A stretch of 63,305 bases of DNA, the filler included. It is 8 parts of 8 records of this genome, joined end to end, with 100 filler letters (N's around TTAATTAATTAA, not from the genome) between each part and the next. Parts side by side here need not be neighbours in the genome. Positions count along the whole stretch, not along the records: positions 35,425 to 44,615 come from SRR31156797_41316; 7 more parts are not named here. One strand, 5' to 3'. The position numbers and the translations under genes are program-made. Positions 3,741 to 56,017 of the stretch are shown in pieces (positions within the stretch are counted from its first letter, which is position 1; the number at the start of each line of letters is the position of its first letter). A model generated the notes under the pieces. That model saw nothing but the letters and a program-made list of their open reading frames with translations, was not told the origin of the DNA and did not search any database.

Positions 3741-4067
3741 TAAAATAAACCTCCTCATTAAAATAATAATATAATAAACTCTTAATAATTTTATTAATAT
3801 TATTAAACCTCATATTAATTCTCCTGTCAATCGTTTAAACTCTAAGACTTTTCTTCATTAATTAATCTTAATTCAAACAACTCAACGACTATCCACTGTC
3901 AAAATGTCGTAGTAAATAGCCGCTGATTTTATTAGTTTCGATCTTTCGATTGATACTGTATCTTCAAATTCTAAAAAAATACGACTTTTAATATTTTAAA
4001 ATTCTTTTTTTATTCTTTGAAGATTTTTATGATTTTTTATTATATTTAAACATAAAATATAATAATA

Positions 4068-6092
4068 CTATTTAATATAACCTGAATTACTCATCTGTTT
4101 TTTTGTTATTTCCTGAGATTTTTTGAGAACTTCCTCAACACTTTTTCCTTCAGTAAATATTGTACTTATCTCTATTCCGACTTGACCTCCGATCGCGGGA
4201 AATTCAGGAATACTTACAAACTGAATACCTGTATAAGGAACCTTATCCTTTGTTGGATTATTTGGATCCGCAGAATTTATTGAACTTAAAACAAATTTTG
4301 CAAATGGTGCAACTTTCAAATAGTTTGGATTAGAATAAGTTGATTCTCTCGTTCCCGGTGGAATTGCTACCCAGCCTTTTTTCTCTCCTACCAATTTGAT
4401 ATACTCTTTTGATGTTGCCCACTCTATAAACTTTTGAGCTTCATCAGGATATTTTGCCGAAGCCGGAATTCCAAGCGCCCAAGCCCATAACCAATTTGAA
4501 CCCCGTTTCGTTATCGAATATGGTGATGCTGCAAATCCTATTTTGTCATGCATTTTTGATTGATTCGAATCAAATAACATTCCTGCTGCTACAGTGGCAT
4601 CTATCCATATTCCTAACTTACCTTCAGACATTAATGCTTTGTTTTCATTAAAACTGTTTGATACTATTTTCGGAGGCCCGTATTTATTTATAATATTTGA
4701 ATAGTAAGAGATTGCATTCTTCCATTCTTGCGAGTCAAGCTGCGGATTCCAATTTTCATCAAACCATCTGGCTCCAAATGAGTTTGCTAAAATTGATAAA
4801 AATGCCATATTATCTCCCCAACCAGGTTTTCCTCTTAGACCAATTCCATAGAAGTCATTTGAAGCATCATGAATTATTGATGCAAATTTCTCAATATCCT
4901 CATATGTTGGATTTTTAGGCATTTTTATCCCGTGTTTTTCAAAAACATCTTTTCTATAATAAGTCATCGTACTCTCTGCATAAAACGGAAGAGCATATAA
5001 CTGATTATTATATGATAAACCTTCTCTAACGGGTTTTAATAAATCCGCAACATCATATTCCATTGGAAAGTTTTCCAAAGCATATAGCCAGTTATTCTTT
5101 GCCCATAATGGTGTCTCATACATTCCTATAGTCATAACATCAAAACTTTCATCATCTATTGCCAGACTACTAAGTAATCTCTGCCTAAGAATACCTTCAT
5201 CAAGAACACTCCATTCAATTTTAATATTTGGATTTTGTCTTTCATATTCATCAGATAAACTTTGCATAATAAGCATATCTCCATTGTTAACAGTTCCTAT
5301 TTTAATTATTGTCTTATCTTTATCTTCTTTTAGTTTTACCATGTTATTTTTTAATCCATGACTGGCAAGTATTTTATCCAAAGTTCCATCATCTCTAAGT
5401 ATCTGTAATCCTTCATTAAATTCTCTCAATAATTTTGCTGAATTTTTTTTTCGTTTTGAAAACCCAATATGAAAAGTGTTTTCGGCTAAAGCTGCTTTAA
5501 TAAACTCCAATTTCCCTATTAGCTGTGGTTCTTTTGAAACCATAATATCTGCTGCTGTATATTTATCTATTACAATTAAATCTGTTCTTCCTTTTGCCAG
5601 CTTTAATAAATTTTGCTGATCTGATTTTCCTAAATCTTTTTTTAGTGGAAATTCATCAAAATCACTATCGATGCTTCTTCCTCTAACAGATCCAATTTGA
5701 TATCGATTTAATTCATTTAGAAAAGCTTGTGGATTATCCTGATAAGTATTCCTAAAATTAATATCTCTATCTTTTAATTTCAAAAGCCCAATTGTATCAC
5801 CGGGAAATCCATCAGACAATAATAACTTCCCTTTCGCATCATTATAAAGTGGCAGTACTCCGTCAACTCTTCCATTTTCAGCCAGAAAAAAACTTCTTGC
5901 TTCAGGGTAATATTCTACTCTTACACTATAACCTTTTCGTGAAAATACTTCTTCAAGCAATTCATACACATAACCATTATTTTTTAGAGAATTTCCTATA
6001 TAAGGAATTCTTTCCGTTGAAGCAAAAATAAGCTCTTCACTCAATGATTTTACAGATATGACCAGTATAAACAGTAAAAATAATTTTTTCAT
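4068..6092 (-). CDS. Tandem solute-binding protein: family-3 (amino-acid type) SBP fused to a polyol (SmoE/MtlE-like) SBP
   Basis: Signal peptide; N-half PYI..NGYVYELL..GRTDLIVID..FNEGL..DGTLDKIL; C-half IGTVNNGDM, LRGKPGWGDNM, WIDATVAA, WLWAWALGIP, PYTGIQFV. Confidence 0.8.
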   Translation of the reverse strand: MKKLFLLFILVISVKSLSEELIFASTERIPYIGNSLKNNGYVYELLEEVFSRKGYSVRVEYYPEARSFFLAENGRVDGVLPLYNDAKGKLLLSDGFPGDTIGLLKLKDRDINFRNTYQDNPQAFLNELNRYQIGSVRGRSIDSDFDEFPLKKDLGKSDQQNLLKLAKGRTDLIVIDKYTAADIMVSKEPQLIGKLEFIKAALAENTFHIGFSKRKKNSAKLLREFNEGLQILRDDGTLDKILASHGLKNNMVKLKEDKDKTIIKIGTVNNGDMLIMQSLSDEYERQNPNIKIEWSVLDEGILRQRLLSSLAIDDESFDVMTIGMYETPLWAKNNWLYALENFPMEYDVADLLKPVREGLSYNNQLYALPFYAESTMTYYRKDVFEKHGIKMPKNPTYEDIEKFASIIHDASNDFYGIGLRGKPGWGDNMAFLSILANSFGARWFDENWNPQLDSQEWKNAISYYSNIINKYGPPKIVSNSFNENKALMSEGKLGIWIDATVAAGMLFDSNQSKMHDKIGFAASPYSITKRGSNWLWAWALGIPASAKYPDEAQKFIEWATSKEYIKLVGEKKGWVAIPPGTRESTYSNPNYLKVAPFAKFVLSSINSADPNNPTKDKVPYTGIQFVSIPEFPAIGGQVGIEISTIFTEGKSVEEVLKKSQEITKKQMSNSGYIK

Positions 6093-7184: not shown

Positions 7185-7284
7185 NNNNNNNNNNNNNNNN
7201 NNNNNNNNNNNNNNNNNNNNNNNNNNNNTTAATTAATTAANNNNNNNNNNNNNNNNNNNNNNNNNNNNNNNNNNNNNNNNNNNN
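7185..7284. other. Artificial contig spacer
   Basis: 44 N + TTAATTAATTAA (stops in six frames) + 44 N. Confidence 0.99.
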
Positions 7285-13522: not shown

Positions 13523-13622
13523 NNNNNNNNNNNNNNNNNNNNNNNNNNNNNNNNNNNNNNNNNNNNTTAATTAATTAANNNNNNNNNNNNNNNNNNNNNN
13601 NNNNNNNNNNNNNNNNNNNNNN
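13523..13622. other. Artificial contig spacer
   Basis: N44-TTAATTAATTAA-N44. Confidence 0.99.
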
Positions 13623-19563: not shown

Positions 19564-19663
19564 NNNNNNNNNNNNNNNNNNNNNNNNNNNNNNNNNNNNN
19601 NNNNNNNTTAATTAATTAANNNNNNNNNNNNNNNNNNNNNNNNNNNNNNNNNNNNNNNNNNNN
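19564..19663. other. Artificial contig spacer
   Basis: N44-TTAATTAATTAA-N44. Confidence 0.99.
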
Positions 19664-26281: not shown

Positions 26282-26381
26282 NNNNNNNNNNNNNNNNNNN
26301 NNNNNNNNNNNNNNNNNNNNNNNNNTTAATTAATTAANNNNNNNNNNNNNNNNNNNNNNNNNNNNNNNNNNNNNNNNNNNN
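26282..26381. other. Artificial contig spacer
   Basis: N44-TTAATTAATTAA-N44. Confidence 0.99.
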
Positions 26382-35324: not shown

Positions 35325-35424
35325 NNNNNNNNNNNNNNNNNNNNNNNNNNNNNNNNNNNNNNNNNNNNTTAATTAATTAANNNNNNNNNNNNNNNNNNNN
35401 NNNNNNNNNNNNNNNNNNNNNNNN
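35325..35424. other. Artificial contig spacer
   Basis: N44-TTAATTAATTAA-N44. Confidence 0.99.
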
Positions 35425-35454
35425 GAGTTGCCCCGTCTCTGGTTTTCAAGACCA
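35425..35454 (-). repeat. att site: displaced tRNA-Ser(UGA) fragment (anticodon stem-loop plus variable arm)
   Basis: Minus strand TGGT-CTTGAAA-ACCA-GAGACGGGGCAACTC; tRNA-like sequence stops at the anticodon stem with no D-arm beyond it. Confidence 0.82.
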
Positions 35455-35560
35455 TAGATAAACTTTACCCACTATCCCCAAAAAGCCCTAAGAATCCCCT
35501 TTTATCCGGCAATTTGTCCACCTTGACTTACTCGCTATTCCTCTCTATTTTTGTCCAAGA

Positions 35561-35583
35561 TGTGGGGACTAGCGTGGGGACCA
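35561..35583 (+). repeat. Putative integrase arm-type site (left copy)
   Basis: TGTGGGGACTAGCGTGGGGACCA, 22/23 identical to 44505-44527; internal tandem GTGGGGAC. Confidence 0.72.
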
Positions 35584-35609
35584 TTTGATATCTTTGTCTG
35601 AGCGAGAGC

Positions 35610-36737
35610 ATGGCTAAATATAAACGGCACAAAACGAACTATCCAGGTGTTTACTACATCATGGGTACGCACGTATCCAGCGGCAAGCCAGAACGTGTGT
35701 ACTACATCCGTTATCGGAAAAACGGGAAAATGATCGAGGAAAAAGCAGGCCGCCAGTTTCAAAACGACATGACGCCTGCCAAAGCCTCACGAATCCGTGG
35801 CAAGAGAATTGATGGCGATGAGGTCTCAAACGAAGAGCGCCGCAAAGCCGAGGAAGGCACCTGGAGCCTCGATAAGATATGGGAAGAATACAAGCGCCAA
35901 AACTCACATCTCAAAGGACTCAAAATTGACGCCTATCGATTTAAAAAGCATTTGAAACCTCCCCTTGGACACAAGCCCCCATCAGAAATCTACACAATAG
36001 ATGTAGACCGCCTAAGACTGCGCAAGCTCAAAGGCAAATCTCCACAGTCAATCAAACTTGTCTTGTCCCTCCTCAAAAGGATAATCAACTTTGGGGTAAA
36101 GAAAGGGTTATGCCCTGCTCCCGATCCTGCAAAGCTCCACATAACCATTCCCAAAGTGGATAACACCACCACGGAAGACCTTGCCCCCGACCAGTTGAAA
36201 AAACTACTTAAGACGCTTGATGAGTCAGCAAACCAACCCGTTGCATGCATGATGAAGCTGGCTCTTTACACCGGCATGCGTCGGGGAGAAATGTTCAAGC
36301 TGGAATGGTCTGATATCGACTTTGAAAATGAGTTCATAACGCTACGCAACCCTAAAGGCGGCAAGACGGAATCTATTCCACTCAACGACGCAGCCCGTGA
36401 AGTGCTTGAGAGCTTACCCAAAACGAAGAGCCACTTTGTCTTCCCTGGAAGAGATGGTAAGCAGCGAAAAAATGTCACTCCACAGATCAACAAAATAAAA
36501 AAGAAAGCAGGTCTACCCAAAAATTTTCGACCTCTCCATGGCCTCCGCCACGTATATGCATCGATGCTAGCGAGTTCCGGCCAGGTTGACATGTACATGC
36601 TTCAAAAGCTGCTCACACACAAAAGCGCGGCAATGACTCAAAGGTACGCCCACCTACGAGATGAGGCACTACAAAAGGCTTCCAAAGTGGCAGACGCCTT
36701 AATTACAGAGATTAAGAAGACAGCAAACGAGGATTAA
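35610..36737 (+). CDS. Tyrosine integrase
   Basis: N-terminal arm-binding region; TGMRRGE, K, HGLRH, LTH, TQRY catalytic residues; adjacent to att. Confidence 0.95.
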   Translation: MAKYKRHKTNYPGVYYIMGTHVSSGKPERVYYIRYRKNGKMIEEKAGRQFQNDMTPAKASRIRGKRIDGDEVSNEERRKAEEGTWSLDKIWEEYKRQNSHLKGLKIDAYRFKKHLKPPLGHKPPSEIYTIDVDRLRLRKLKGKSPQSIKLVLSLLKRIINFGVKKGLCPAPDPAKLHITIPKVDNTTTEDLAPDQLKKLLKTLDESANQPVACMMKLALYTGMRRGEMFKLEWSDIDFENEFITLRNPKGGKTESIPLNDAAREVLESLPKTKSHFVFPGRDGKQRKNVTPQINKIKKKAGLPKNFRPLHGLRHVYASMLASSGQVDMYMLQKLLTHKSAAMTQRYAHLRDEALQKASKVADALITEIKKTANED

Positions 36738-36739
36738 AC

Positions 36740-37603
36740 ATGCTCTCAGACAACAGCAAATATCTGCTATTCTGGCTATGGGAGTACACTTGTCGAACTC
36801 CCCAAAACAGGCCTCTTTATGCGAAACTTCTTAAAGCCCTCAAAGAACCTGTTGAACAGCCAGAATCAGTTCAACAAATGCTCAAGAAGGGGTGGCTCGT
36901 CGCTGTCATGGACCTTGGTGGATTCGACTTCAAAGAATGGGGTAATGTCTCCAAGAACTGCGATATCTACAAGAGTTCAGAAGACATCTTACAAGCAATT
37001 ATCGAGGACAGCTTTCGCCACCGCTTCCCATCACCTCAAATCGAATGGCCCGGATTAAACGATCTGCCACTTTCACAAAAACAACTCACAACTATTGTTC
37101 ATGATTCTTTCCCCAATGGGATAGATCGCAATCAAAAACAGAAGGAAATCGCCAGGTGGAAAGAAAAGACTAGTCAAGCAGGAGAACACGGCGGTTTCTA
37201 CTTCATTGACTTCACAAAACCATTGGAAGAAATCCAAGCACGAATTGAATATGAATATAGTATTCATAAAAATCTTATGAATGGCACCGGAATCGAACAC
37301 CTTGACATAGACAACCTCAAAAGCATTGAAATTCAACTAATCGAGCAGTGGGTCAGATCAAAAACAAAAATGAAACGAATCCACTCCTCCAAAGTAATCA
37401 GCCGAGTTATAGGGTTGTGGATGTGGGATTATCAACATGAACACAATGTCATTCCACAACAGGCCATACAGGCTTTCAAAAAAAAGTATGAGTACAAGTT
37501 GCCAGGCAAAGACGATGGGTTCGATTCAGCTGACCTTCGCTACTATCTTCGCCAAACAGACAAATGTATAAACAAGGCTGAAGTCCTTCACTTCTCCAAA
37601 TAG
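36740..37603 (+). CDS. Hypothetical protein coupled to the integrase
   Basis: 287-aa ORF starting 2 nt after the integrase stop; no family recognised. Confidence 0.7.
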   Translation: MLSDNSKYLLFWLWEYTCRTPQNRPLYAKLLKALKEPVEQPESVQQMLKKGWLVAVMDLGGFDFKEWGNVSKNCDIYKSSEDILQAIIEDSFRHRFPSPQIEWPGLNDLPLSQKQLTTIVHDSFPNGIDRNQKQKEIARWKEKTSQAGEHGGFYFIDFTKPLEEIQARIEYEYSIHKNLMNGTGIEHLDIDNLKSIEIQLIEQWVRSKTKMKRIHSSKVISRVIGLWMWDYQHEHNVIPQQAIQAFKKKYEYKLPGKDDGFDSADLRYYLRQTDKCINKAEVLHFSK

Positions 37604-37681
37604 GGAGAATACTGATTCCACTAATCGCCCGCCTTTTAATTATCTTTTTAGATTCTTTTACTCTCCCTTACTGCTTTCCAT

Positions 37682-37715
37682 AAGGTCTCCCTACAGCAAG
37701 GAGGCCTTTTCTTTT
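37682..37715 (+). terminator. Probable terminator after the int operon
   Basis: AAGGTCTCC...GGAGGCCTT followed by TTCTTTT. Confidence 0.55.
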
Positions 37716-37751
37716 GTTTGCTTCGGCTTCCTTCAAACAAACGGAGGCACT

Positions 37752-37940
37752 ATGTCTTTACTCACCGAAAAAGAAACGGCCCAGCGACTCGGAATAAGTA
37801 TTAAGACTCTCCAAGCCCGCAGACTAAACAGACGACAGCCCAGCTATGTGAAAATCGGCCGACTGGTTCGATACAAACCGGAAGTGATTGAGGCGTTCAT
37901 TGCTGAAAACACCGTCAACCTCGACTGTAACGCGGCCTAA
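37752..37940 (+). CDS. AlpA/excisionase-like HTH protein
   Basis: LLTEKETAQRLGIS.KTL..R....PSYVKIGRLVRY; GGAGG RBS. Confidence 0.88.
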   Translation: MSLLTEKETAQRLGISIKTLQARRLNRRQPSYVKIGRLVRYKPEVIEAFIAENTVNLDCNAA

Positions 37941-37945
37941 CCTCT

Positions 37946-38740
37946 ATGCAGCGCGGCTACGTTCGTCTCTGGCGCAAGATACGGGACAAGGCGATCCTTG
38001 AGGATTCAACACTTTGCCAAGTCTTCCTGAAAGCTCTGCTTGATGCTGAATTCAAAAGGACGCAGCGAAGAGTCGGCACGAAGTTTATTGACTTAGAACC
38101 GGGCGAATTTGTCTTTGGCCGCACAGCATGGGCCAGAGCGCTTAATGCCACAGAAAATCAGATACGGACCCGCATAAAGCTACTTGAGCGAATGGGGACT
38201 ATCTCCGCCAGCAAGTACTCCAGCACGTACACCGTGTATAAGTTCAACAATTGGAATACTTACGCGACAAGCGGTGACGCCCCTCACCCGCAAGTCAGTC
38301 AGGAATCAGCCCGCAAGCCGTCGGCATCCCGCCCGCATGTCGCCACATATGAAAAAGAAAAGAAGCTAAGAAACAAAGAAGTGGAGGATACTCACGTATC
38401 CTCTTGTTCGAAGCCTCCAAACGGCTCCGAACCGAATATCATAACCACCCTTCCCCTCAAAGATGGCACCGAATTCGCCATCACCGAAGAATTTGCCCAA
38501 GAGCTTGGGCAACTTTATCGGATACCGGACTTGATGAAATCATTTCGGGCAATGCGGGGTTGGCTCATTGGTAATCCCACAAAACGGAAAACCAATAAAG
38601 GAATCAAACGGTTCATCACTGGTTGGCTCAACAGGGAATTGGATGATGCGACGAGGACCGGCGGGAGAAAGGTAATCAATATGCCCCGCCACACACAGAA
38701 CAACCTCGCGGTTATCAACAAGCTCCTTGAGGAGGACTGA
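37946..38740 (+). CDS. Phage replication initiator (lambda O/DnaD-like)
   Basis: GYVRLWRKI N-terminal wHTH, low-complexity linker with DNA repeats, C-terminal WL..NP.KRKT..GIKRFI..WL.RE. Confidence 0.75.
   Translation: MQRGYVRLWRKIRDKAILEDSTLCQVFLKALLDAEFKRTQRRVGTKFIDLEPGEFVFGRTAWARALNATENQIRTRIKLLERMGTISASKYSSTYTVYKFNNWNTYATSGDAPHPQVSQESARKPSASRPHVATYEKEKKLRNKEVEDTHVSSCSKPPNGSEPNIITTLPLKDGTEFAITEEFAQELGQLYRIPDLMKSFRAMRGWLIGNPTKRKTNKGIKRFITGWLNRELDDATRTGGRKVINMPRHTQNNLAVINKLLEED
38287..38380 (+). promoter_or_regulatory. Putative iteron replication origin inside the initiator gene
   Basis: CCCGCAAGTC (38287), CCCGCAAGCC (38310), CCCGCATGTC (38332), then an A-rich tract at 38351-38380. Confidence 0.62.
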
Positions 38741-38742
38741 CT

Positions 38743-39375
38743 ATGGATTGGACCAACAAGGATGATCGAACCTCATTTCTAACCGCCTTCGGTAGCCTGA
38801 GCGAGATATTCGGAAAGGAATTCTCTGAATTCTCAGCCAAGGCATACTTCAAGGCTTTGTCCTCCCACCCTGTGCGGAATGTGGTCAACGCAATCGAAAA
38901 AGCAATCATTCGCTGCCGGTTCTTCCCCAAGCCGGTTGAGCTCTTGGAATTCCTTGAAGGGACGCCGGAGGACCAAAAAATTAAGGCCGAAGGTAAAGCA
39001 CGGGAAGTGCTCATGGCTGTCCGCCGGTACGGAGCATATGCCAACGTCCTTTTCCCTGATCCTGTCACCAATGCAATTCTCCGCCAATATTTCGGAGGCT
39101 GGATTGCGGTATGTGCCACACGCGAAGACGCGCACAAATGGTTCATCAAAGATTTTGCTGATCGCTACGCTGAATACAAAGCGAACGGCATTGAGGACAC
39201 GGAACCGCTGCGGGGAATTGGAACAAGCCCTATCGTTGAATACGTCGGAGGTACTCATCGCCCGGCCCTGATCGGAAAAAGACAGCAGGAAGTCAAGCAG
39301 TTGGCAACCGGCCTCGGCAAAGAATTGAGCAGCCGTAGCCGAGCACCCAGCACACAGGCCGCGAGAAAGGCCTAG
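38743..39375 (+). CDS. Phage replication accessory protein (DUF6475 / helicase loader-inhibitor-like)
   Basis: F...F..L.E.FGK, Y..AL, FFPKP.EL, V...V.RYG.Y..V.F.DP, GGW..C, WF.KDF...Y; directly follows the initiator. Confidence 0.65.
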   Translation: MDWTNKDDRTSFLTAFGSLSEIFGKEFSEFSAKAYFKALSSHPVRNVVNAIEKAIIRCRFFPKPVELLEFLEGTPEDQKIKAEGKAREVLMAVRRYGAYANVLFPDPVTNAILRQYFGGWIAVCATREDAHKWFIKDFADRYAEYKANGIEDTEPLRGIGTSPIVEYVGGTHRPALIGKRQQEVKQLATGLGKELSSRSRAPSTQAARKA

Positions 39376-39633
39376 AGAGGGTTCAATTCTTGTTTCTCAT
39401 AACAACTTGAAGCTGGGAGCGGGCGAAGGCCTCAAATTGCGGAACAAAGCAAATATGAGCGGAATTTATAGCATTCGGAAAAGACACACAAAAACACAGG
39501 AAACGCCCAAAAACCATGATTCAAACAATTTCAAGACATTAAGCATGTTTCACAGAGGTTTCCGAACGTTTTTTTACAGTTGTTAGCCACCCAAGGAAGT
39601 AGGTTTCTCCACACACATTACACGAAGGAAAAA

Positions 39634-40272
39634 ATGAAAGGCTGTAGACCACTCTCCCAAAGGGAGATTCACCGAATTTTAAACTCTTTCACCGGACGCA
39701 ATCGGCTCCGCAATCGAGCTCTGTTCGTCCTTGGCGCGACATGCGGCTTTCGAATTCAGGAACTCCTTTCGCTACGAGTCAAAGACGTTGTATTGGAGGG
39801 CCAAATGGTGGACCGGGTGACCGTCCAGAAGCGGAACATGAAGGGCTCCATTGAATCCCGCAATGTAGTTCTCCTCAATGTGGCCCGCACAGCCGTTCTT
39901 GACTGGATCACATCCGGCCTCTGGGAACGCGGCTATGTTTCGCCTGAAACATTCCTTTTCCGATCTGAGTACGGATTAAATCAACCGATATCCCCACAAC
40001 ATGCTCACCGTGTTCTTTCGCACAACTACAAGCGAAACCACCTGTCCGGGAAACTTGGCACCCACACCATGCGAAAAACCTACGCGAAATTCCTTTATGA
40101 GGACGCCCAAGAGCGCCGGGGCCAGGGAGAAGCTATCGACCCGCTCCCGCTTGTCTCGAAGGCGCTTGGCCACAAGTCTCTCAACAGCACCATGTCTTAC
40201 CTTTCATTCATGACCGAGGACATCGACATATCAGCCGCAAACTACGAACGCAGAATCTTTGGAGGTCTGTGA
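39634..40272 (+). CDS. Small catalytic-domain-only tyrosine recombinase
   Basis: MKGCRPLS start behind a GAAGGAA RBS; RNRALF, GFRIQE, THTMRKT, LGH, TMSYL. Confidence 0.88.
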   Translation: MKGCRPLSQREIHRILNSFTGRNRLRNRALFVLGATCGFRIQELLSLRVKDVVLEGQMVDRVTVQKRNMKGSIESRNVVLLNVARTAVLDWITSGLWERGYVSPETFLFRSEYGLNQPISPQHAHRVLSHNYKRNHLSGKLGTHTMRKTYAKFLYEDAQERRGQGEAIDPLPLVSKALGHKSLNSTMSYLSFMTEDIDISAANYERRIFGGL

Positions 40273-40463
40273 TGCAACAATATCGTACGGTCAAAATGCT
40301 GGCCGAGGAACTGAGTGTACACCCTGACACCATTTATCGCATGTGCGAACGGCGGGAGATTCCTCACCACCGCATACGCGGTCGAATCCGGTTCAGCCCG
40401 GAGCACGTCAAGGCGTTGAAAAAAGCAACCCGCGTTCCCGCTCGAAGGGGAGGAATTCAATGA
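40269..40463 (+). CDS. Second excisionase-like HTH protein
   Basis: TVK.LAEEL.V.PDTIYRM.....IP..RI...IRF; overlaps the recombinase stop. Confidence 0.82.
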   Translation: MMQQYRTVKMLAEELSVHPDTIYRMCERREIPHHRIRGRIRFSPEHVKALKKATRVPARRGGIQ

Positions 40464-40822
40464 ACAATTCACACACCCCCAACGAATTTGCAGTCCACCT
40501 GAACAACCTGGCGGCAACTGTCTACCACGACAACCCGGACGCCGCCCGAACAGCCAAACGGGCAGCAATGATAATTGAACAATGCATGAAAGACATGGCG
40601 ATACTGTTCAAAGTTTTCAAGGAAGCCAACGTTTTCATCAAACACTTTTACTTTGACAACGATTTGCCCAGCGAAATTGCAGATTGGGACCTCGTCCAGA
40701 CGGGACCGTGGACACACGGGAAGCAAGCCGAAGACGCTCTGAAAAATCTGGCTGTTGAAGTTTTCATGACTTGCTCTGAATTAAGGCGACGCGAAGAACG
40801 AATAAACAAACCGATCAACTAA
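40460..40822 (+). CDS. Hypothetical protein
   Basis: ATG at 40460 with GGAGG RBS and ATGA overlap with the previous stop; 120 aa. Confidence 0.65.
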   Translation: MNNSHTPNEFAVHLNNLAATVYHDNPDAARTAKRAAMIIEQCMKDMAILFKVFKEANVFIKHFYFDNDLPSEIADWDLVQTGPWTHGKQAEDALKNLAVEVFMTCSELRRREERINKPIN

Positions 40823-40834
40823 AAGGAATTAATC

Positions 40835-41905
40835 ATGTGCGGTAAATCGAGCAACAACGGCGGAAAAAGCAAAGGCGCAACATCTAGCTTGGGCGGATAC
40901 AGCTTCGGCCATGGTCTCGGTAGCATTGCCGACCAGCGTCGCGCCGAAAACAGGACGGCAATGAATCAAGGAATAAATATCAGTAACAGCCCCGGATTTC
41001 AAAGTCGCGGCCTTGAGCACACGTCATCAATGGGAGGACCAACTAAAACACCTCAGGCGCAAATCAAACCTCAAGGCGTTCTCATGACTCCAACGCCCGT
41101 CTCCAAACCTCGTATGACAAGCGTTTTTGGGACCATGGGAATTGATAACATCAAAGAAACAGAAGATGCATTCGAAGGCACTGGATTTATGGGACTTGGA
41201 AAAAAAGGCTCGATCAATGTTCCGGATGATTATGGTTGGGACTTTACCGCAAACAAAGCAATTGGGACCGAACCATCTTGGAGTGCAAACCGTTCCTTAC
41301 CGGGCAAGGCGCGAGATATGGTCGCCAAGGCTATTGGAAGCCCCTACGACAGAGACGTAACAGCAGATCGAGCTAGGGATATGCTTTCGAGGGGAAAAGG
41401 CACACTTTCAACCTGGACGGAGGGCCTTCAGGAAGGGAACTACCAGTACGACAAGGCAGGAAATCCAACTGAGGACAAATTAGGCAGAGCATACGATATG
41501 CTCAGCCCCATCACGGATGTTATCACAGGCAATCCGCTTGGAGCGGTATTCAGCACGGCTTCAGCTATCGACACGGCCATGGATCACAATAAACTTGAAA
41601 AGGCCGGGGTTTTCGGCCAGCCGCTTACTCAGCACGCACCACTGACACGCGGGAGAACACTGCTCTCTCGTACCATGTTCGGTAATGGAGAGAGTGACCA
41701 CGGCCCTTCCATGAAACCTTCACTCAAACCAGCCTTAAAAACTTCCTCCTCAGAAAAGCCAAAGCGTAGGCCTAGACGCGGAAGGGAAACTTTGATGCTG
41801 ACAGGGCCACAAGGAGTAACGAACCCTGCTGAACTGGCTATACGACGGCTCTTTGGCGAGGACGGAAAAAGAAAACCAGTCTTGATGCAAAAGCATTACG
41901 AGTAA
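40835..41905 (+). CDS. Gly/Ser/Thr-rich protein with podovirus small-virion-protein-like termini
   Basis: AAGGA RBS; N-terminal MCGKSS; C-terminal RRGRETLMLTGPQGVTNPAELAIRRLFG. Confidence 0.6.
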   Translation: MCGKSSNNGGKSKGATSSLGGYSFGHGLGSIADQRRAENRTAMNQGINISNSPGFQSRGLEHTSSMGGPTKTPQAQIKPQGVLMTPTPVSKPRMTSVFGTMGIDNIKETEDAFEGTGFMGLGKKGSINVPDDYGWDFTANKAIGTEPSWSANRSLPGKARDMVAKAIGSPYDRDVTADRARDMLSRGKGTLSTWTEGLQEGNYQYDKAGNPTEDKLGRAYDMLSPITDVITGNPLGAVFSTASAIDTAMDHNKLEKAGVFGQPLTQHAPLTRGRTLLSRTMFGNGESDHGPSMKPSLKPALKTSSSEKPKRRPRRGRETLMLTGPQGVTNPAELAIRRLFGEDGKRKPVLMQKHYE

Positions 41906-41916
41906 CTTTGAATCTG

Positions 41917-41945
41917 TTGCACATTTTCTCGGATATGCTTATATT
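41917..41945 (+). promoter_or_regulatory. Sigma70-type promoter
   Basis: TTGCAC (41917-41922), 17-nt spacer, TATATT (41940-41945). Confidence 0.72.
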
Positions 41946-41949
41946 GTAT

Positions 41950-42142
41950 GTGTGAGGTGATAACATGGGAATACCCGTTAGGGTGGGCCGTGCTGGATTG
42001 GCCCCCAGCGCCTATGCGGGCCTCACATATAAAGGCTGACCTAGGAAACGTCTCCTCTTGGAGCTTGGGTCGCTGGGGGGTGCCGCCCAGCGCCTAGGCA
42101 GCCTACCAAGGAACCCCGTGCAAAAGTGCGGGGTTTTCTTTT
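41950..42142 (+). ncRNA. Candidate structured small RNA (or 24-codon peptide mRNA)
   Basis: Lies between the promoter and the terminator; GC-rich, two multi-stem domains, exact 11-nt repeat CCCAGCGCCTA at 42004 and 42086. Confidence 0.55.
42112..42142 (+). terminator. Intrinsic terminator closing the small transcript
   Basis: AACCCCGTGC-AAAA-GTGCGGGGTT followed by TTCTTTT. Confidence 0.78.
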
Positions 42143-42235
42143 AAGAACCTCCTCCCCCAATTCAAGGGAAAAACAAATTCAAATATACAACGCTAATTTC
42201 CCTTCAAACCGAGGGAAACCCTTTCGCCCTTCAGT

Positions 42236-42355
42236 GCGTCAAGTTAGAGTATACCCTAACTCAACTACTTAAAACTATACTGATTCGCGTCAATTTAGAG
42301 TGTGAAATCTTTTTTCTTGACATGTCGTCAATGCAAGCTTAGAGTCTATCTTAAC
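42236..42355. promoter_or_regulatory. Putative res site of the serine resolvase
   Basis: GCGTCAAGTTAGAGT (42236), GCGTCAATTTAGAGT (42287) and TTAGAGT (42339) immediately upstream of the resolvase, overlapping a TTGACA. Confidence 0.6.
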
Positions 42356-42381
42356 GGAAGACAAAAACGGAGGTTGACACC

Positions 42382-42936
42382 ATGTCAGGTCAGAACATTG
42401 CGTATATTCGAGTTAGCACTCTGGAACAAAATACCGCCCGACAGCTTGACGGGATGGAATTTCACAGAACCTTCACCGACAAGGCAAGCGCAAAGGACAC
42501 CAACCGCCCCGCCTTACGTGATTGTCTGGACTTCGTACGCGAAGGTGACACCCTTCACATTCATTCCATAGATCGCCTCTGTCGCAATCTGCGCGATTGC
42601 CAAGAACTCTTAGACAACCTACTTGCAAAGGGCGTGTCTGTCCGCTTCCATCGCGAAAACCTGACTTTCACCGGCCAAGATGATTCCATGTCTAAGCTCA
42701 TGCTCCAAATGATGGGAGCCTTTGCCGAATTCGAAAGGAACTTATTGAGAGAACGCCAAGCCGAAGGAATTGCCAAGGCCAAGACTGCCGGGAAGTACAA
42801 GGGCCGCAAGCGGGCATTGAGCGAGGATCAAATTAAAGAAATCAAGACACGGCTTAACCATGGTGAAGGCAAGGCGACTCTGGCTGCTGAGTATGGCGTG
42901 AGTCGACAGACGTTGTACGCTACCTTGAAGCGGTAG
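42382..42936 (+). CDS. Small serine recombinase (resolvase/invertase) with C-terminal HTH
   Basis: YIRVST.EQN..RQ, SIDRL.R, AEFER.L.RERQ.EGI, GRK, GVSRQTLY. Confidence 0.95.
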   Translation: MSGQNIAYIRVSTLEQNTARQLDGMEFHRTFTDKASAKDTNRPALRDCLDFVREGDTLHIHSIDRLCRNLRDCQELLDNLLAKGVSVRFHRENLTFTGQDDSMSKLMLQMMGAFAEFERNLLRERQAEGIAKAKTAGKYKGRKRALSEDQIKEIKTRLNHGEGKATLAAEYGVSRQTLYATLKR

Positions 42937-43040
42937 TAATTTGCCACAAACAACCAAATGACATTATTAATATTGTCGGGAAACGTTTCGGACGTGTGCG
43001 CGACGCCTCTTTTTGAGTAGCACGTGGCGTCCCGGCAACA

Positions 43041-43068
43041 AAAAGGCGACTCAATCAGAGTCGCCTTT
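43041..43068. terminator. Bidirectional terminator between resolvase and Xre gene
   Basis: AAAGGCGACTC-AATCA-GAGTCGCCTTT perfect 11-bp stem. Confidence 0.7.
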
Positions 43069-43267
43069 ATCTTTTCTGGCTGAACAAATCCTTCACCCTC
43101 ACCCCAAGGATATCCGCGATCCGCTCTAGGGTATTCAAAGTGCACTTCTCGACAAGCTCCCCACGGGCGCGGTGGACCGTACCTGAAGACAGGCCGGTAA
43201 TCTGGACCAGCTTACGAATGGAGACACCTTTTTTCTCCATCAACTCTTTGACGTTGCTTTCGATCAT
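43067..43267 (-). CDS. Xre/Cro-C1-type HTH regulator (66 aa)
   Basis: MIESNVKELMEKKGVSIRKL..TGLS.GTV.R, TL.TLERIA..LGV.V.DLF; start re-called at ATG 43267. Confidence 0.85.
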   Translation of the reverse strand: MIESNVKELMEKKGVSIRKLVQITGLSSGTVHRARGELVEKCTLNTLERIADILGVRVKDLFSQKR

Positions 43268-43286
43268 ATTCGCCTTCTCACCCCTT

Positions 43287-43344
43287 TGACTTAATATATT
43301 GACACAGATTGATTTAGATTGGTATGAGTTAATATATTGAGTCA
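43287..43344. promoter_or_regulatory. Paired operator-like palindromes in a divergent promoter region
   Basis: TTAATATATTGA at 43291 and 43329, near-palindromic; the first overlaps TTGACA at 43299. Confidence 0.62.
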
Positions 43345-43369
43345 TGGTAGATTTTAAACAGGAGGATTT

Positions 43370-43705
43370 ATGCAGGACATTATGCCAACTTACAGCCATC
43401 GCCCAGAAGAAGCAGGCGCAAATCATTTATGCTCATTGCGCTGCCTGCTTGAATACGTAAACGATCAAGCCATAGACGATTCAAACGCACCGCTGATCGG
43501 GATAACCGAAGCGGCCTTGGCTCTACTTGAAAAAATTAGAAGTGACATTGAAAAAGAAATGGCCCCCCTCAAAGGCTTGAACATTGTTCGCTACAACAAA
43601 TCCCAAGAGAACGTTTGCGCAGGAGTCGCAAACAAATTCATCGGATTTGAAGTGCAAGAAGACGCCAACTTTGACATTAAACTCAAGGAGGACCTTCATG
43701 CCTAA
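43370..43705 (+). CDS. Hypothetical protein
   Basis: AGGAGG RBS; 111 aa; divergent from the Xre gene. Confidence 0.68.
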   Translation: MQDIMPTYSHRPEEAGANHLCSLRCLLEYVNDQAIDDSNAPLIGITEAALALLEKIRSDIEKEMAPLKGLNIVRYNKSQENVCAGVANKFIGFEVQEDANFDIKLKEDLHA

Positions 43706-43940
43706 ATACGATAACTACGAACCGACACTGCCCACCTGTAGCGATCCGATTTTAGAGCTATATTCAATTCAGCACGCGGTAGCTGCACTTAGCGAACAAC
43801 TCAACTCCCAAGAACAACTAGGTGAAGCATACATGGCCCTTCTTATCAGCAAAGCCCTAGAGGCTGTTGCAGGAAAAATGGATAATGAAGACTGGAAGCA
43901 AGCAAACGAGCCTCCGTGCAAAGTCCATGCGCTTGGCTAG
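43698..43940 (+). CDS. Hypothetical protein
   Basis: AAGGAGG RBS before ATG 43698; 80 aa; overlaps the previous stop. Confidence 0.65.
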   Translation: MPKYDNYEPTLPTCSDPILELYSIQHAVAALSEQLNSQEQLGEAYMALLISKALEAVAGKMDNEDWKQANEPPCKVHALG

Positions 43941-43947
43941 AAACACC

Positions 43948-43974
43948 AAAGGCGGCCCGGACAGGCCGCCTTTT
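43948..43974. terminator. Bidirectional terminator
   Basis: AAAGGCGGCC-CGGACA-GGCCGCCTTTT between convergent ORFs. Confidence 0.72.
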
Positions 43975-44309
43975 CATTTGCCAAGTAGGGATTTGTAATA
44001 GTCATTTACCTGCGTGGCCAAGTTACGCCGCTGAGTTTCGGCCTCTTCTCGCGTGTCCCAAGCATCGTAAACAATCTGCGAATTATCTTTGGGACGATAA
44101 TCGACTCTGGAATCAGTCAGCATAACCGGGAAACCCCATAAAGGGACATGTGATCCATCTTCAATTTCCAAAAATGCAATTCCCTCGTAGACTTGACCTA
44201 TCATGATAATTTTGGCGATCGGGACAAGGGAACCTGATAGGTTTACCAAATAATCAAATTCAGGATCGTCGGATTCGTATTCAACAACGGATTCAAATTT
44301 GGGTGACAT
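43974..44309 (-). CDS. Hypothetical protein
   Basis: AAGGAGGT RBS; acidic 111 aa. Confidence 0.65.
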   Translation of the reverse strand: MSPKFESVVEYESDDPEFDYLVNLSGSLVPIAKIIMIGQVYEGIAFLEIEDGSHVPLWGFPVMLTDSRVDYRPKDNSQIVYDAWDTREEAETQRRNLATQVNDYYKSLLGK

Positions 44310-44504
44310 GGGCTACCTCCTTTGCGCAAAGGATAACATACCCATTCAAAGGAGAATTAGGGAAATAAGACATACAAAATGCCCACGCCCCATATCCTTG
44401 AATACACGCTATGATACAACAGCAGAATTGAAAGAGCCTTGTTAAGTGAGCAAATTATAATTCAAATTTTGATCTTGCCACTCAAATGACAATTTAGCCT
44501 TACC

Positions 44505-44527
44505 TGTGGGGACTAGAGTGGGGACCA
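44505..44527 (+). repeat. Putative integrase arm-type site (right copy)
   Basis: TGTGGGGACTAGAGTGGGGACCA, direct repeat of 35561-35583. Confidence 0.72.
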
Positions 44528-44545
44528 CTTTTCAATCAGCAACAG

Positions 44546-44577
44546 AAAAGGGCTTGCCTCATTCGAGACAAGCCCTT
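44546..44577 (-). terminator. Terminator downstream of the tRNA 3' end
   Basis: AAGGGCTTG...CAAGCCCTT stem with a T-run on the minus strand, just after CCA. Confidence 0.75.
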
Positions 44578-44585
44578 GATATTAC

Positions 44586-44615
44586 TGGCGGAGAGGAGAG
44601 GATTCGAACCTCCGG
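44586..44615 (-). tRNA. 3' end of tRNA-Ser (truncated; att site)
   Basis: Minus strand CCGGAGGTTCGAATCCTCTCCTCTCCGCCA: T-arm, acceptor stem, discriminator G and CCA. Confidence 0.88.
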
Positions 44616-44715
44616 NNNNNNNNNNNNNNNNNNNNNNNNNNNNNNNNNNNNNNNNNNNNTTAATTAATTAANNNNNNNNNNNNNNNNNNNNNNNNNNNNN
44701 NNNNNNNNNNNNNNN
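44616..44715. other. Artificial contig spacer
   Basis: N44-TTAATTAATTAA-N44. Confidence 0.99.
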
Positions 44716-55917: not shown

Positions 55918-56017
55918 NNNNNNNNNNNNNNNNNNNNNNNNNNNNNNNNNNNNNNNNNNNNTTAATTAATTAANNNNNNNNNNNNNNNNNNNNNNNNNNN
56001 NNNNNNNNNNNNNNNNN
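55918..56017. other. Artificial contig spacer
   Basis: N44-TTAATTAATTAA-N44. Confidence 0.99.

Follow-up and report, generated by a model that had tools for sequence, protein, structure and literature searches.

The small protein gp3 of the podovirus epsilon15 consists of 68 amino acids (aa) and is encoded directly upstream of the portal gene gp4. It reads MCIGSKPS...GRSSTLLTGAQG...KTLLGQ (a stretch also written RRRRAAAGRSSTLLTGAQG...GKTLLGQ) and belongs to the PHROG family phrog_831 (70 positions), which carries the function label unknown. Phage satellites such as P4, PICI/SaPI and PLE are small elements integrated in tRNA genes; they carry int, an AlpA- or xis-like helix-turn-helix (HTH) protein, a replication module and a repressor, and have no capsid genes. 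Here we describe a gene that we compared with both systems. It is located at positions 40835-41905 (plus strand) of a 63,305-base stretch of DNA, in the following called the window, and encodes an expanded variant of a known, uncharacterised phage protein family in an unusual small element. The window consists of eight separate contigs with an N44-TTAATTAATTAA-N44 linker between each. As the sequences are joined contigs with a G+C content ranging from 0.27 to 0.62, genes on either side of a linker are not neighbours in any genome. The gene is carried by contig 6 (window 35425-44615; 9,191 nucleotides, nt), and the remaining seven contigs contain ordinary cellular genes. On balance, we lean towards a real gene for a modular phage-internal protein of the core or ejection type.

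The open reading frame (ORF) starts at the first in-frame ATG after a stop, 12 nt past the stop of the preceding ORF120, with an AAGGA Shine-Dalgarno sequence upstream. Its translation product comprises 356 aa and reads MCGKSS...RRPRRGRETLMLTGPQGVTNPAELAIRRLFGEDGKRKPVLMQKHYE, exactly as described in the initial annotation, a model-generated description made from the nucleotide letters. An AlphaFold2 model built on alignment A3 (defined below) revealed a folded alpha/beta domain in the middle (about residues 100-260; predicted local distance difference test, pLDDT, 70-88). In this model, the arms on its two sides (residues 1-92 and 263-356) are mostly disordered and contain short helices at residues 31-44 and 331-339. 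Both arms are basic, with net charges of +7 (N) and +11 (C). The initial annotation had described the middle as Gly/Ser/Thr-rich; the Gly/Ser richness, however, belongs to the N arm (G 16%, S 14%), and the middle is a conserved, confidently folded domain rather than low-complexity filler, with R153, D161, R173, G201, D214, and G217 invariant in alignment A3. The weaker upstream echo of the C-terminal motif noted there is present as RGRTLLSRTMFG (residues 272-283), in which M281 and G283 do not vary across the five sequences of alignment A1 (closest relatives). The last 15 residues (EDGKRKPVLMQKHYE) were also found in the relatives P0007 and P0026. A lipoprotein reading of the MC start was rejected, as no hydrophobic leader is visible by eye ahead of the cysteine.

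The C terminus links this protein to the gp3 family. In a hmmscan search against PHROGs, it matched phrog_831 only (residues 304-341; E 2e-5). When the parts were scanned separately, as suggested in the initial annotation, the last 50 aa alone still matched the same family (E 1.4e-5), so that the annotation withstood its own refuting condition. No PHROG at E ≤ 1 was obtained with the first 30 aa or with residues 1-92, and residues 93-262 gave only two rows near E 0.3. The full-length protein had no Pfam, NCBIfam, or PADLOC match. We then compared two family alignments by hhalign: A3, comprising the protein and 15 long relatives (left out were the 110-aa fragment P0014, P0017, whose match was confined to the middle domain, and the short proteins P0018 and P0019), and A4, comprising 12 diversity-picked sequences of the 120 gp3-family matches listed together with Pseudomonas phage Ab31 ORF03, P0018, and P0025. 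Both families aligned over 34 columns (probability 89%, E 2e-6). An MC start is present in 111 of the 120 gp3-family matches listed, and our protein starts with MCG; MG starts in Ab31, HTVC100P, and P0018 show that MC is common but not universal. With regard to gene position, a phrog_831 match lies between the genes for the large terminase subunit (TerL) and the portal in all five phage records inspected, i.e., Ab31, Vibrio 1.182.O, pelagiphage HTVC100P, and ct3Et533, which were taken from 122 records with a relative of the L001 ejection protein (see below), and, in addition, epsilon15. In Ab31, the match is ORF03 (84 aa; E 2e-9). The short, portal-adjacent, MC-starting and R-rich family that the initial annotation had referred to thus exists, and the C-terminal motif and the MC start support its view of our protein as an expanded relative.

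Sequence comparison provides good support for a lineage shared with gp3 at the C end and at the start, but not in size or position. Common to both are the MC start, a basic run, and the C-terminal R-rich GR.S(T/L).LTG.QG...LLG signature. Most gp3-family matches listed, however, comprise 66-72 aa, whereas our protein reaches 356 aa, of which about 165 aa form a folded insert. Furthermore, gp3-type genes lie beside the portal gene, whereas neither TerL nor a portal is encoded on the 9,191-nt contig, and the relatives of our gene come after a large ejection-protein gene.

Conserved ends around middles of different size were also found elsewhere. The cultured pelagiphage HTVC100P has two phrog_831 genes before the portal gene, gp59 (72 aa) and gp57 (196 aa). 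Like our protein, gp57 is an expanded phrog_831-type protein with a Gly/Ser-rich N-terminal part and the motif at its C end (RRGKGRDTLIATSPQGVTN...SLLG), where 13 of 21 residues are identical between the two; unlike it, gp57 starts with MG, has an unrelated middle, and is encoded directly upstream of the portal. In the record used here (L011, 3211-4200), the 72-aa and 196-aa genes lie together with a 57-aa ORF between terminase and portal. At the other end of the size range, the metagenome contig L001 (5,725 nt) carries a very basic mini-ORF of 47 aa (MCGSARKKK...KRKPILMQKHYE) 3' of a long gene of our type, with a 40-nt direct repeat on both sides. Compared to window 41858-41905, L001 (3436-3652) has TAG in place of GAG after ...RRLFG, and the tail is repeated at the end of the mini-ORF. 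The window contains one copy of the 40-nt repeat and is devoid of the 172 nt present in L001, and the long protein therefore keeps its ...EDGKRKPVLMQKHYE tail. Together with gp3 (68 aa) and the long family (331-436 aa), these proteins form a size series, the same terminal peptides enclosing middles that differ greatly in size and sequence.

To define the long family, a profile search was conducted among 1.84 billion representatives, which resulted in 18 proteins at E ≤ 0.001, 13 of them matched near full length, and marks the family as rare. Alignment A3 contains 10 invariant columns, and our protein has the N arm, the middle, and the C motif along its full length. Fourteen of the 16 other long-family members start with MCG (counting P0022 and P0024, which have longer starts), and two start with MPDFSG. 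All members with a named source belong to the Desulfovibrionaceae (Pseudodesulfovibrio indicus, P. sediminis [BCS87338.1], P. pelocollis [WP_285907667.1], Pseudodesulfovibrio sp. JC047 [NDV19226.1], and a Pseudodesulfovibrio metagenome-assembled genome; Desulfovibrio caledoniensis [XXJ19859.1]; Salidesulfovibrio brasiliensis [WP_054650618.1]). Searches of other collections were negative: tblastn of our protein gave no match in phage or plasmid collections, tblastn of the short P0018 none either, and blastn of 7.9 kb of the element none in phages. Likewise, no relative was found in genome contigs with A1 or P0004 as query, or in viral contigs with A1, our protein, P0006, the L001 ORF, or the DUF6475 protein of the element.

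The closest relative is the long gene on L001, which is 93% identical. It starts 27 nt 3' of an ORF that is open at its 5' end and comprises at least 791 aa. This ORF has a match to phrog_684 ('virion structural protein'; E 3.9e-157), the large ejection protein of the epsilon15 gp17/T7 gp16 class, and shares 26-31% identity with the large internal virion proteins encoded by Ab31, pelagiphages, and epsilon15-like phages. Hardies et al. (PMC4819975) assign epsilon15 gp17 to the IVP-D (T7 gp16) class. From equally sized contigs, we infer that four further long-family members share a contig with a phrog_684-type gene (15414 nt, P0147/P0026; 2383124 nt, P0148/P0003; 14436 nt, P0149/P0007; 24785 nt, P0150/P0016 and P0024). 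In the window, ORF120 rather than a phrog_684 gene precedes our gene. Between our gene and the L001 copy, we counted 37 synonymous and 22 non-synonymous changes, corresponding to a ratio of non-synonymous to synonymous substitution rates (dN/dS) of 0.17 overall and 0.11 in the middle domain, compared to 0.08 for the recombinase gene further downstream. Judged by these substitutions, the gene is alive and under purifying selection.

How such a protein could act is best illustrated by T7 gp6.7 (DUF5476, phrog_1391), which serves as our working model for the end peptides. Like our protein, gp6.7 is basic and starts with MC (MCFSPK...AFGGKK); it is itself small and matches phrog_1391 only. As described in PMC11784390, each virion contains 12 copies of gp6.7. 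The protein docks to the portal barrel and core through short terminal loops, with residues 2-15 around the portal barrel and a second loop touching gp15, and it is ejected, leaving with gp14 to line the channel. T7 gp7.3 is grouped with gp6.7 as a small ejected core/tail-channel protein. By analogy, the short terminal peptides of our protein (MC... and ...LTG.QG...L(L/F)G) would dock it onto the portal or core of a podovirus procapsid, and the variable middle domain would be packaged and then ejected with the DNA. Another parallel is provided by N4 gp50, the virion RNA polymerase (vRNAP), and H66 gp60, with a methylase site, which, according to PMC4819975, combine an internal scaffold with a domain acting after ejection. 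They are fusions to the large IVP-D, whereas the carrier in our protein would be a gp3-type peptide pair.

Several observations weigh against a phage-internal role. There is no detectable homology between gp6.7 and our protein, its gene has another position, and hhalign comparison of gp6.7 with the gp3 family gave a probability of 2%, i.e., no sequence relation, so docking is proposed by analogy only. The homology to phrog_831 spans only about 34-38 residues, and the N arm and the middle belong to no PHROG, Pfam, NCBIfam, or PADLOC family. Foldseek found nothing in PDB or BFVD that matched the fold of the middle at E ≤ 0.001, and VIA reached a best Z of 3.7. The long family, unlike the short one, is not found beside the portal; its linkage to phrog_684 through contig sizes covers only four of 16 members, with no such pair for the other 12 in a word-limited search; and the gene after phrog_684 is fibre- or spike-like rather than gp3-like in four of four isolated or assembled phages. 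We found no published work placing a gp3/phrog_831 protein in a virion: PMC12391199 contains no mention of gp3, and PMC8954989 names epsilon15 only for its gp14-16 analogues. Finally, we could assign no helper phage, small terminase subunit (TerS), or pac/cos signal to the element. Searches by sequence against solved structures gave none for A3 and only chance rows for Ab31 ORF03 (E ≥ 0.46). ESM Atlas matches of our protein to unnamed viral clusters (0.81-0.87) were taken as leads only and not used as support, and PF11653 (ESM Atlas 0.78, in 21% of cluster members) was considered too weak to count as evidence.

The missing literature on virions, together with the strongly basic termini and the protamine-like character of the L001 mini-ORF, would also fit a protein that is not part of a virion at all. 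Its basic disordered arms would then bind DNA or membrane in the cell, e.g., as a nucleoid or replication accessory factor or as a lysogenic-conversion factor, and the gp3-like motif would be a shared short linear motif. Yet the short family lies beside the portal within head-gene clusters in every phage record inspected, the long-family gene of L001 adjoins an ejection-protein gene, and neither a signal peptide nor a transmembrane stretch is visible by eye. We therefore regard a purely cellular function as quite improbable.

In run X1 (Logan contigs), which may have supplied the DNA described here, the element forms one 9,191-nt record with a depth of 105, compared to 93-112 for neighbouring contigs. 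Its end 30-mers (44615->35425) are joined by two letters at a depth of 197, about twice the element depth. The contig ends represent adjoining pieces of the 3' part of tRNA-Ser(UGA); ARAGORN calls tRNA-Ser(tga) only across the joined ends, and at 35454 the sequence also continues differently, into what reads as the genuine 5' half of the tRNA. We read the element as a single integrated copy in tRNA-Ser with a 62-nt attachment (att) duplication at its borders. Just inside both ends (35561-35586 and 44505-44530) lies a 26-nt direct repeat (92% identical; TGTGGGGACTAG.GTGGGGACCA.TT), which may represent the arm-type sites of the integrase. A joint in run X3 (35583->44546) was rejected as an empty site, being too weak (depth 2.6, side 25).

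Scans against Pfam, PHROGs, and NCBIfam detected no capsid, portal, terminase, tail, or lysis family among the element genes. The absence of a following portal gene, pointed out in the initial annotation, is true of the whole 9,191-nt contig, and the scans support its description of our gene as the only structural-looking one on a small integrated element. As the element has no head genes, the proposed docking and ejection would work here only with a co-resident helper podovirus, and because a helper is required, two options follow for the gene: a hijack tool in the manner of satellites, or a structural gene kept from a parent phage. The xis gene overlaps ORF120 (ATGA), and our gene is the last in an int2-xis-orf120 operon; given this overlap and the 12-nt spacing, it would be made together with the excision genes. 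Pieces over most of the backbone were also found in run X2 (seawater metagenome), where a 4,766-nt contig extends from int2/xis to our gene and has 3,115 other letters replacing window 40312-40853. By its size, this insert would have room for one 849-aa gene and spacers. ORF287 and ORF120 had no or almost no cover in the three other runs and are for this reason considered variable cargo slots.

These features raise the possibility that the 9.1-kb element is a podovirus satellite. Upon induction, xis, ORF120, and our gene would be expressed, and its helper-compatible end peptides would load the middle domain into helper capsids carrying satellite DNA, where it would either serve as cargo for the next host or displace the gp3 or core protein of the helper. 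In common with described satellites, the element is small, complete, and single-copy, and has att repeats, an integrase, an xis/AlpA-like excision regulator, its own replication module, and a repressor, and it lacks genes for capsid or tail. The recurrence of its backbone in other metagenome runs fits this as well, since the X2 insert is far below the size of a phage structural module, as do the right arm (resolvase region) shared with L001, the purifying selection on our gene, and its co-transcription with the excision genes. In contrast to described satellites, however, no gene for packaging or capsid redirection was recognised (no TerS, cos/pac, or Sid/Cpm-like gene by Pfam, PHROGs, and NCBIfam, with five element ORFs without family), the sole particle-related gene is a homolog of an internal protein, and no helper could be assigned. 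Among the papers listed in a literature search, none showed a satellite carrying ejection-protein genes. The order of genes in L001, with a 93%-identical gene behind a phrog_684 gene, and the four linked members fit an ordinary phage origin. A complete element, the similar small architecture in a second sample, purifying selection, and the operon speak for this sharpened form of the satellite and cargo idea of the initial annotation, the near-identical gene behind an ejection-protein gene counts against it, and we consider it possible but tentative.

Comparison of the DNA with L001 points to another origin. Homology opens exactly at the ATG of our gene and resumes in the downstream non-coding stretch (41906-42140), which at 95.6% identity is closer to L001 than the coding parts, and in the recombinase gene (89%). 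Such an edge is expected of a recombinant or deletion junction and also argues against a special invention by a satellite. Accordingly, the element could have arisen by deletion or recombination from a temperate epsilon15-like podovirus infecting Desulfovibrionaceae; the last late gene would have been joined to a lysogeny and replication module and would persist as a leftover without a role. The 172-nt deletion between the 40-nt direct repeats, which removed an L001-type mini-ORF, indicates ongoing recombination in line with this origin; the phrog_684 linkage is common among family members, and the element has no recognised packaging gene. A mere leftover is, however, difficult to reconcile with the intact frame and the dN/dS of 0.17, with translational coupling inside an operon, and with the related small architecture of the second sample, whose different insert in the same slot would demand two independent deletions that both kept our gene. 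We therefore consider a remnant without function unlikely.

Beyond this single element, 9-12-kb tRNA-Ser satellites of Desulfovibrionaceae podoviruses might bring their own ejectosome or core parts without capsid genes, i.e., a gp3-type protein that carries a payload domain, accompanied in most members by an IVP-D-like protein. The end peptides (MCG..., ...LTG.QG...LFG, and KRKP.LMQ) would then be portable packaging signals that load helper heads for delivery into the next cell. As a joint proposal, this is doubtful, and we rate it slightly below the satellite reading of the element itself.

Table 1. Coordinates of features in the window, with the match or observation on which each assignment is based
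Feature	Position	Strand	Evidence or remark
Linkers between contigs	7185-7284, 13523-13622, 19564-19663, 26282-26381, 35325-35424, 44616-44715, 55918-56017		
Left att core copy	35425-35454	-	3' portion of tRNA-Ser(UGA): anticodon arm and start of variable arm; end 30-mer common to other contigs
Tyrosine integrase, 375 aa	35610-36737	+	Pfam Phage_integrase 9.7e-34; phrog_1 6e-63
ORF287, no family, variable slot	36740-37603	+	no or almost no cover over 36653-37880 in three other runs
DnaD-like replication initiator or helicase loader, 264 aa	37946-38740	+	phrog_2514 1.3e-21
DUF6475 protein, 210 aa, phage replication-module partner	38743-39375	+	PF20081 4e-9; phrog_10105 1.8e-28
Short second tyrosine recombinase, 230 aa, catalytic domain only	39580-40272	+	Phage_integrase 6.2e-17; phrog_216 1.2e-27
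Excisionase/AlpA-like HTH_17 protein, 64 aa	40269-40463	+	PF12728 4.6e-11; TIGR01764 1.3e-9; overlaps both neighbours
ORF120, no family, variable slot	40460-40822	+	strong GGAGG Shine-Dalgarno; 3,115 other letters here in the run X2 relative
N arm, residues 1-92	40835-41110	+	MCG start, Gly/Ser-rich, net charge +7, mostly predicted disordered, short helix 31-44
Alpha/beta middle domain, residues 93-262	41111-41620	+	conserved; no recognised fold or family
Disordered basic linker with internal echo RGRTLLSRTMFG (residues 272-283)	41621-41743	+	
gp3/phrog_831 C-terminal signature KRRPRRGRETLMLTGPQGVTNPAELAIRRLFG, residues 304-341	41744-41857	+	phrog_831 by hmmscan and hhalign
15-residue tail EDGKRKPVLMQKHYE and stop	41858-41905	+	resembles second copy of terminal helix motif
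Conserved structured non-coding stretch	41906-42140	+	fold z-score -3.7; terminator hairpin about 42108-42140
Two exact CGTCAA.TTAGAGT repeats, possible res site	42237-42301 (42237-42250, 42288-42301)	+	upstream of serine recombinase gene
Serine recombinase (resolvase/invertase), 184 aa	42382-42936	+	Resolvase 5.4e-36 and HTH_7; phrog_125 4.4e-60
Cro/CI-type HTH regulator, 119 aa	43067-43426	-	HTH_26 1.5e-13; divergent from small ORFs 43370-43940
Right att core copy	44586-44615	-	T arm and acceptor 3' end of tRNA-Ser; intact tRNA runs past contig end

Regarding other features of the element (Table 1), the structured non-coding stretch holds a 49-aa ORF (41948-42097) that likewise starts with MC, and nothing in it came near an Rfam gathering score. 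In L001, about 940 extra nt (3884-4824) with an opposite-strand gene for a tetratricopeptide repeat (TPR)-like protein are located between the terminator and the recombinase gene, and are not present in the window. A promoter scan assigned the serine recombinase gene its own promoter-like site (42317-42345). The CGTCAA.TTAGAGT motif has four matches in the window against 1.03 expected, of which the pair listed as a possible res site is exact; an inverted copy with one mismatch lies 6.3 kb away inside the integrase gene (35918-35931, minus strand). On another contig (window 22805-24145), we observed a GvpD-like P-loop/KaiC-type protein encoded between alaS on one side and two response-regulator genes on the other.

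What the expanded protein means for phage biology depends on its role. If only a remnant, the gene would be an ordinary one of prophage origin, though informative in its domain architecture. Should the element prove to be a satellite, its contribution would consist of internal or ejected proteins instead of factors for capsid size or packaging, and this in little-studied hosts, the sulfate reducers. If the end peptides dock at the portal or core, the series from 47 through 68 and 196 to about 360 aa, in which the ends stay the same and the middles change, would represent a natural cassette design. The peptides would then constitute a portable tag for placing proteins inside podovirus heads, and the gp3/phrog_831 family would gain a function.

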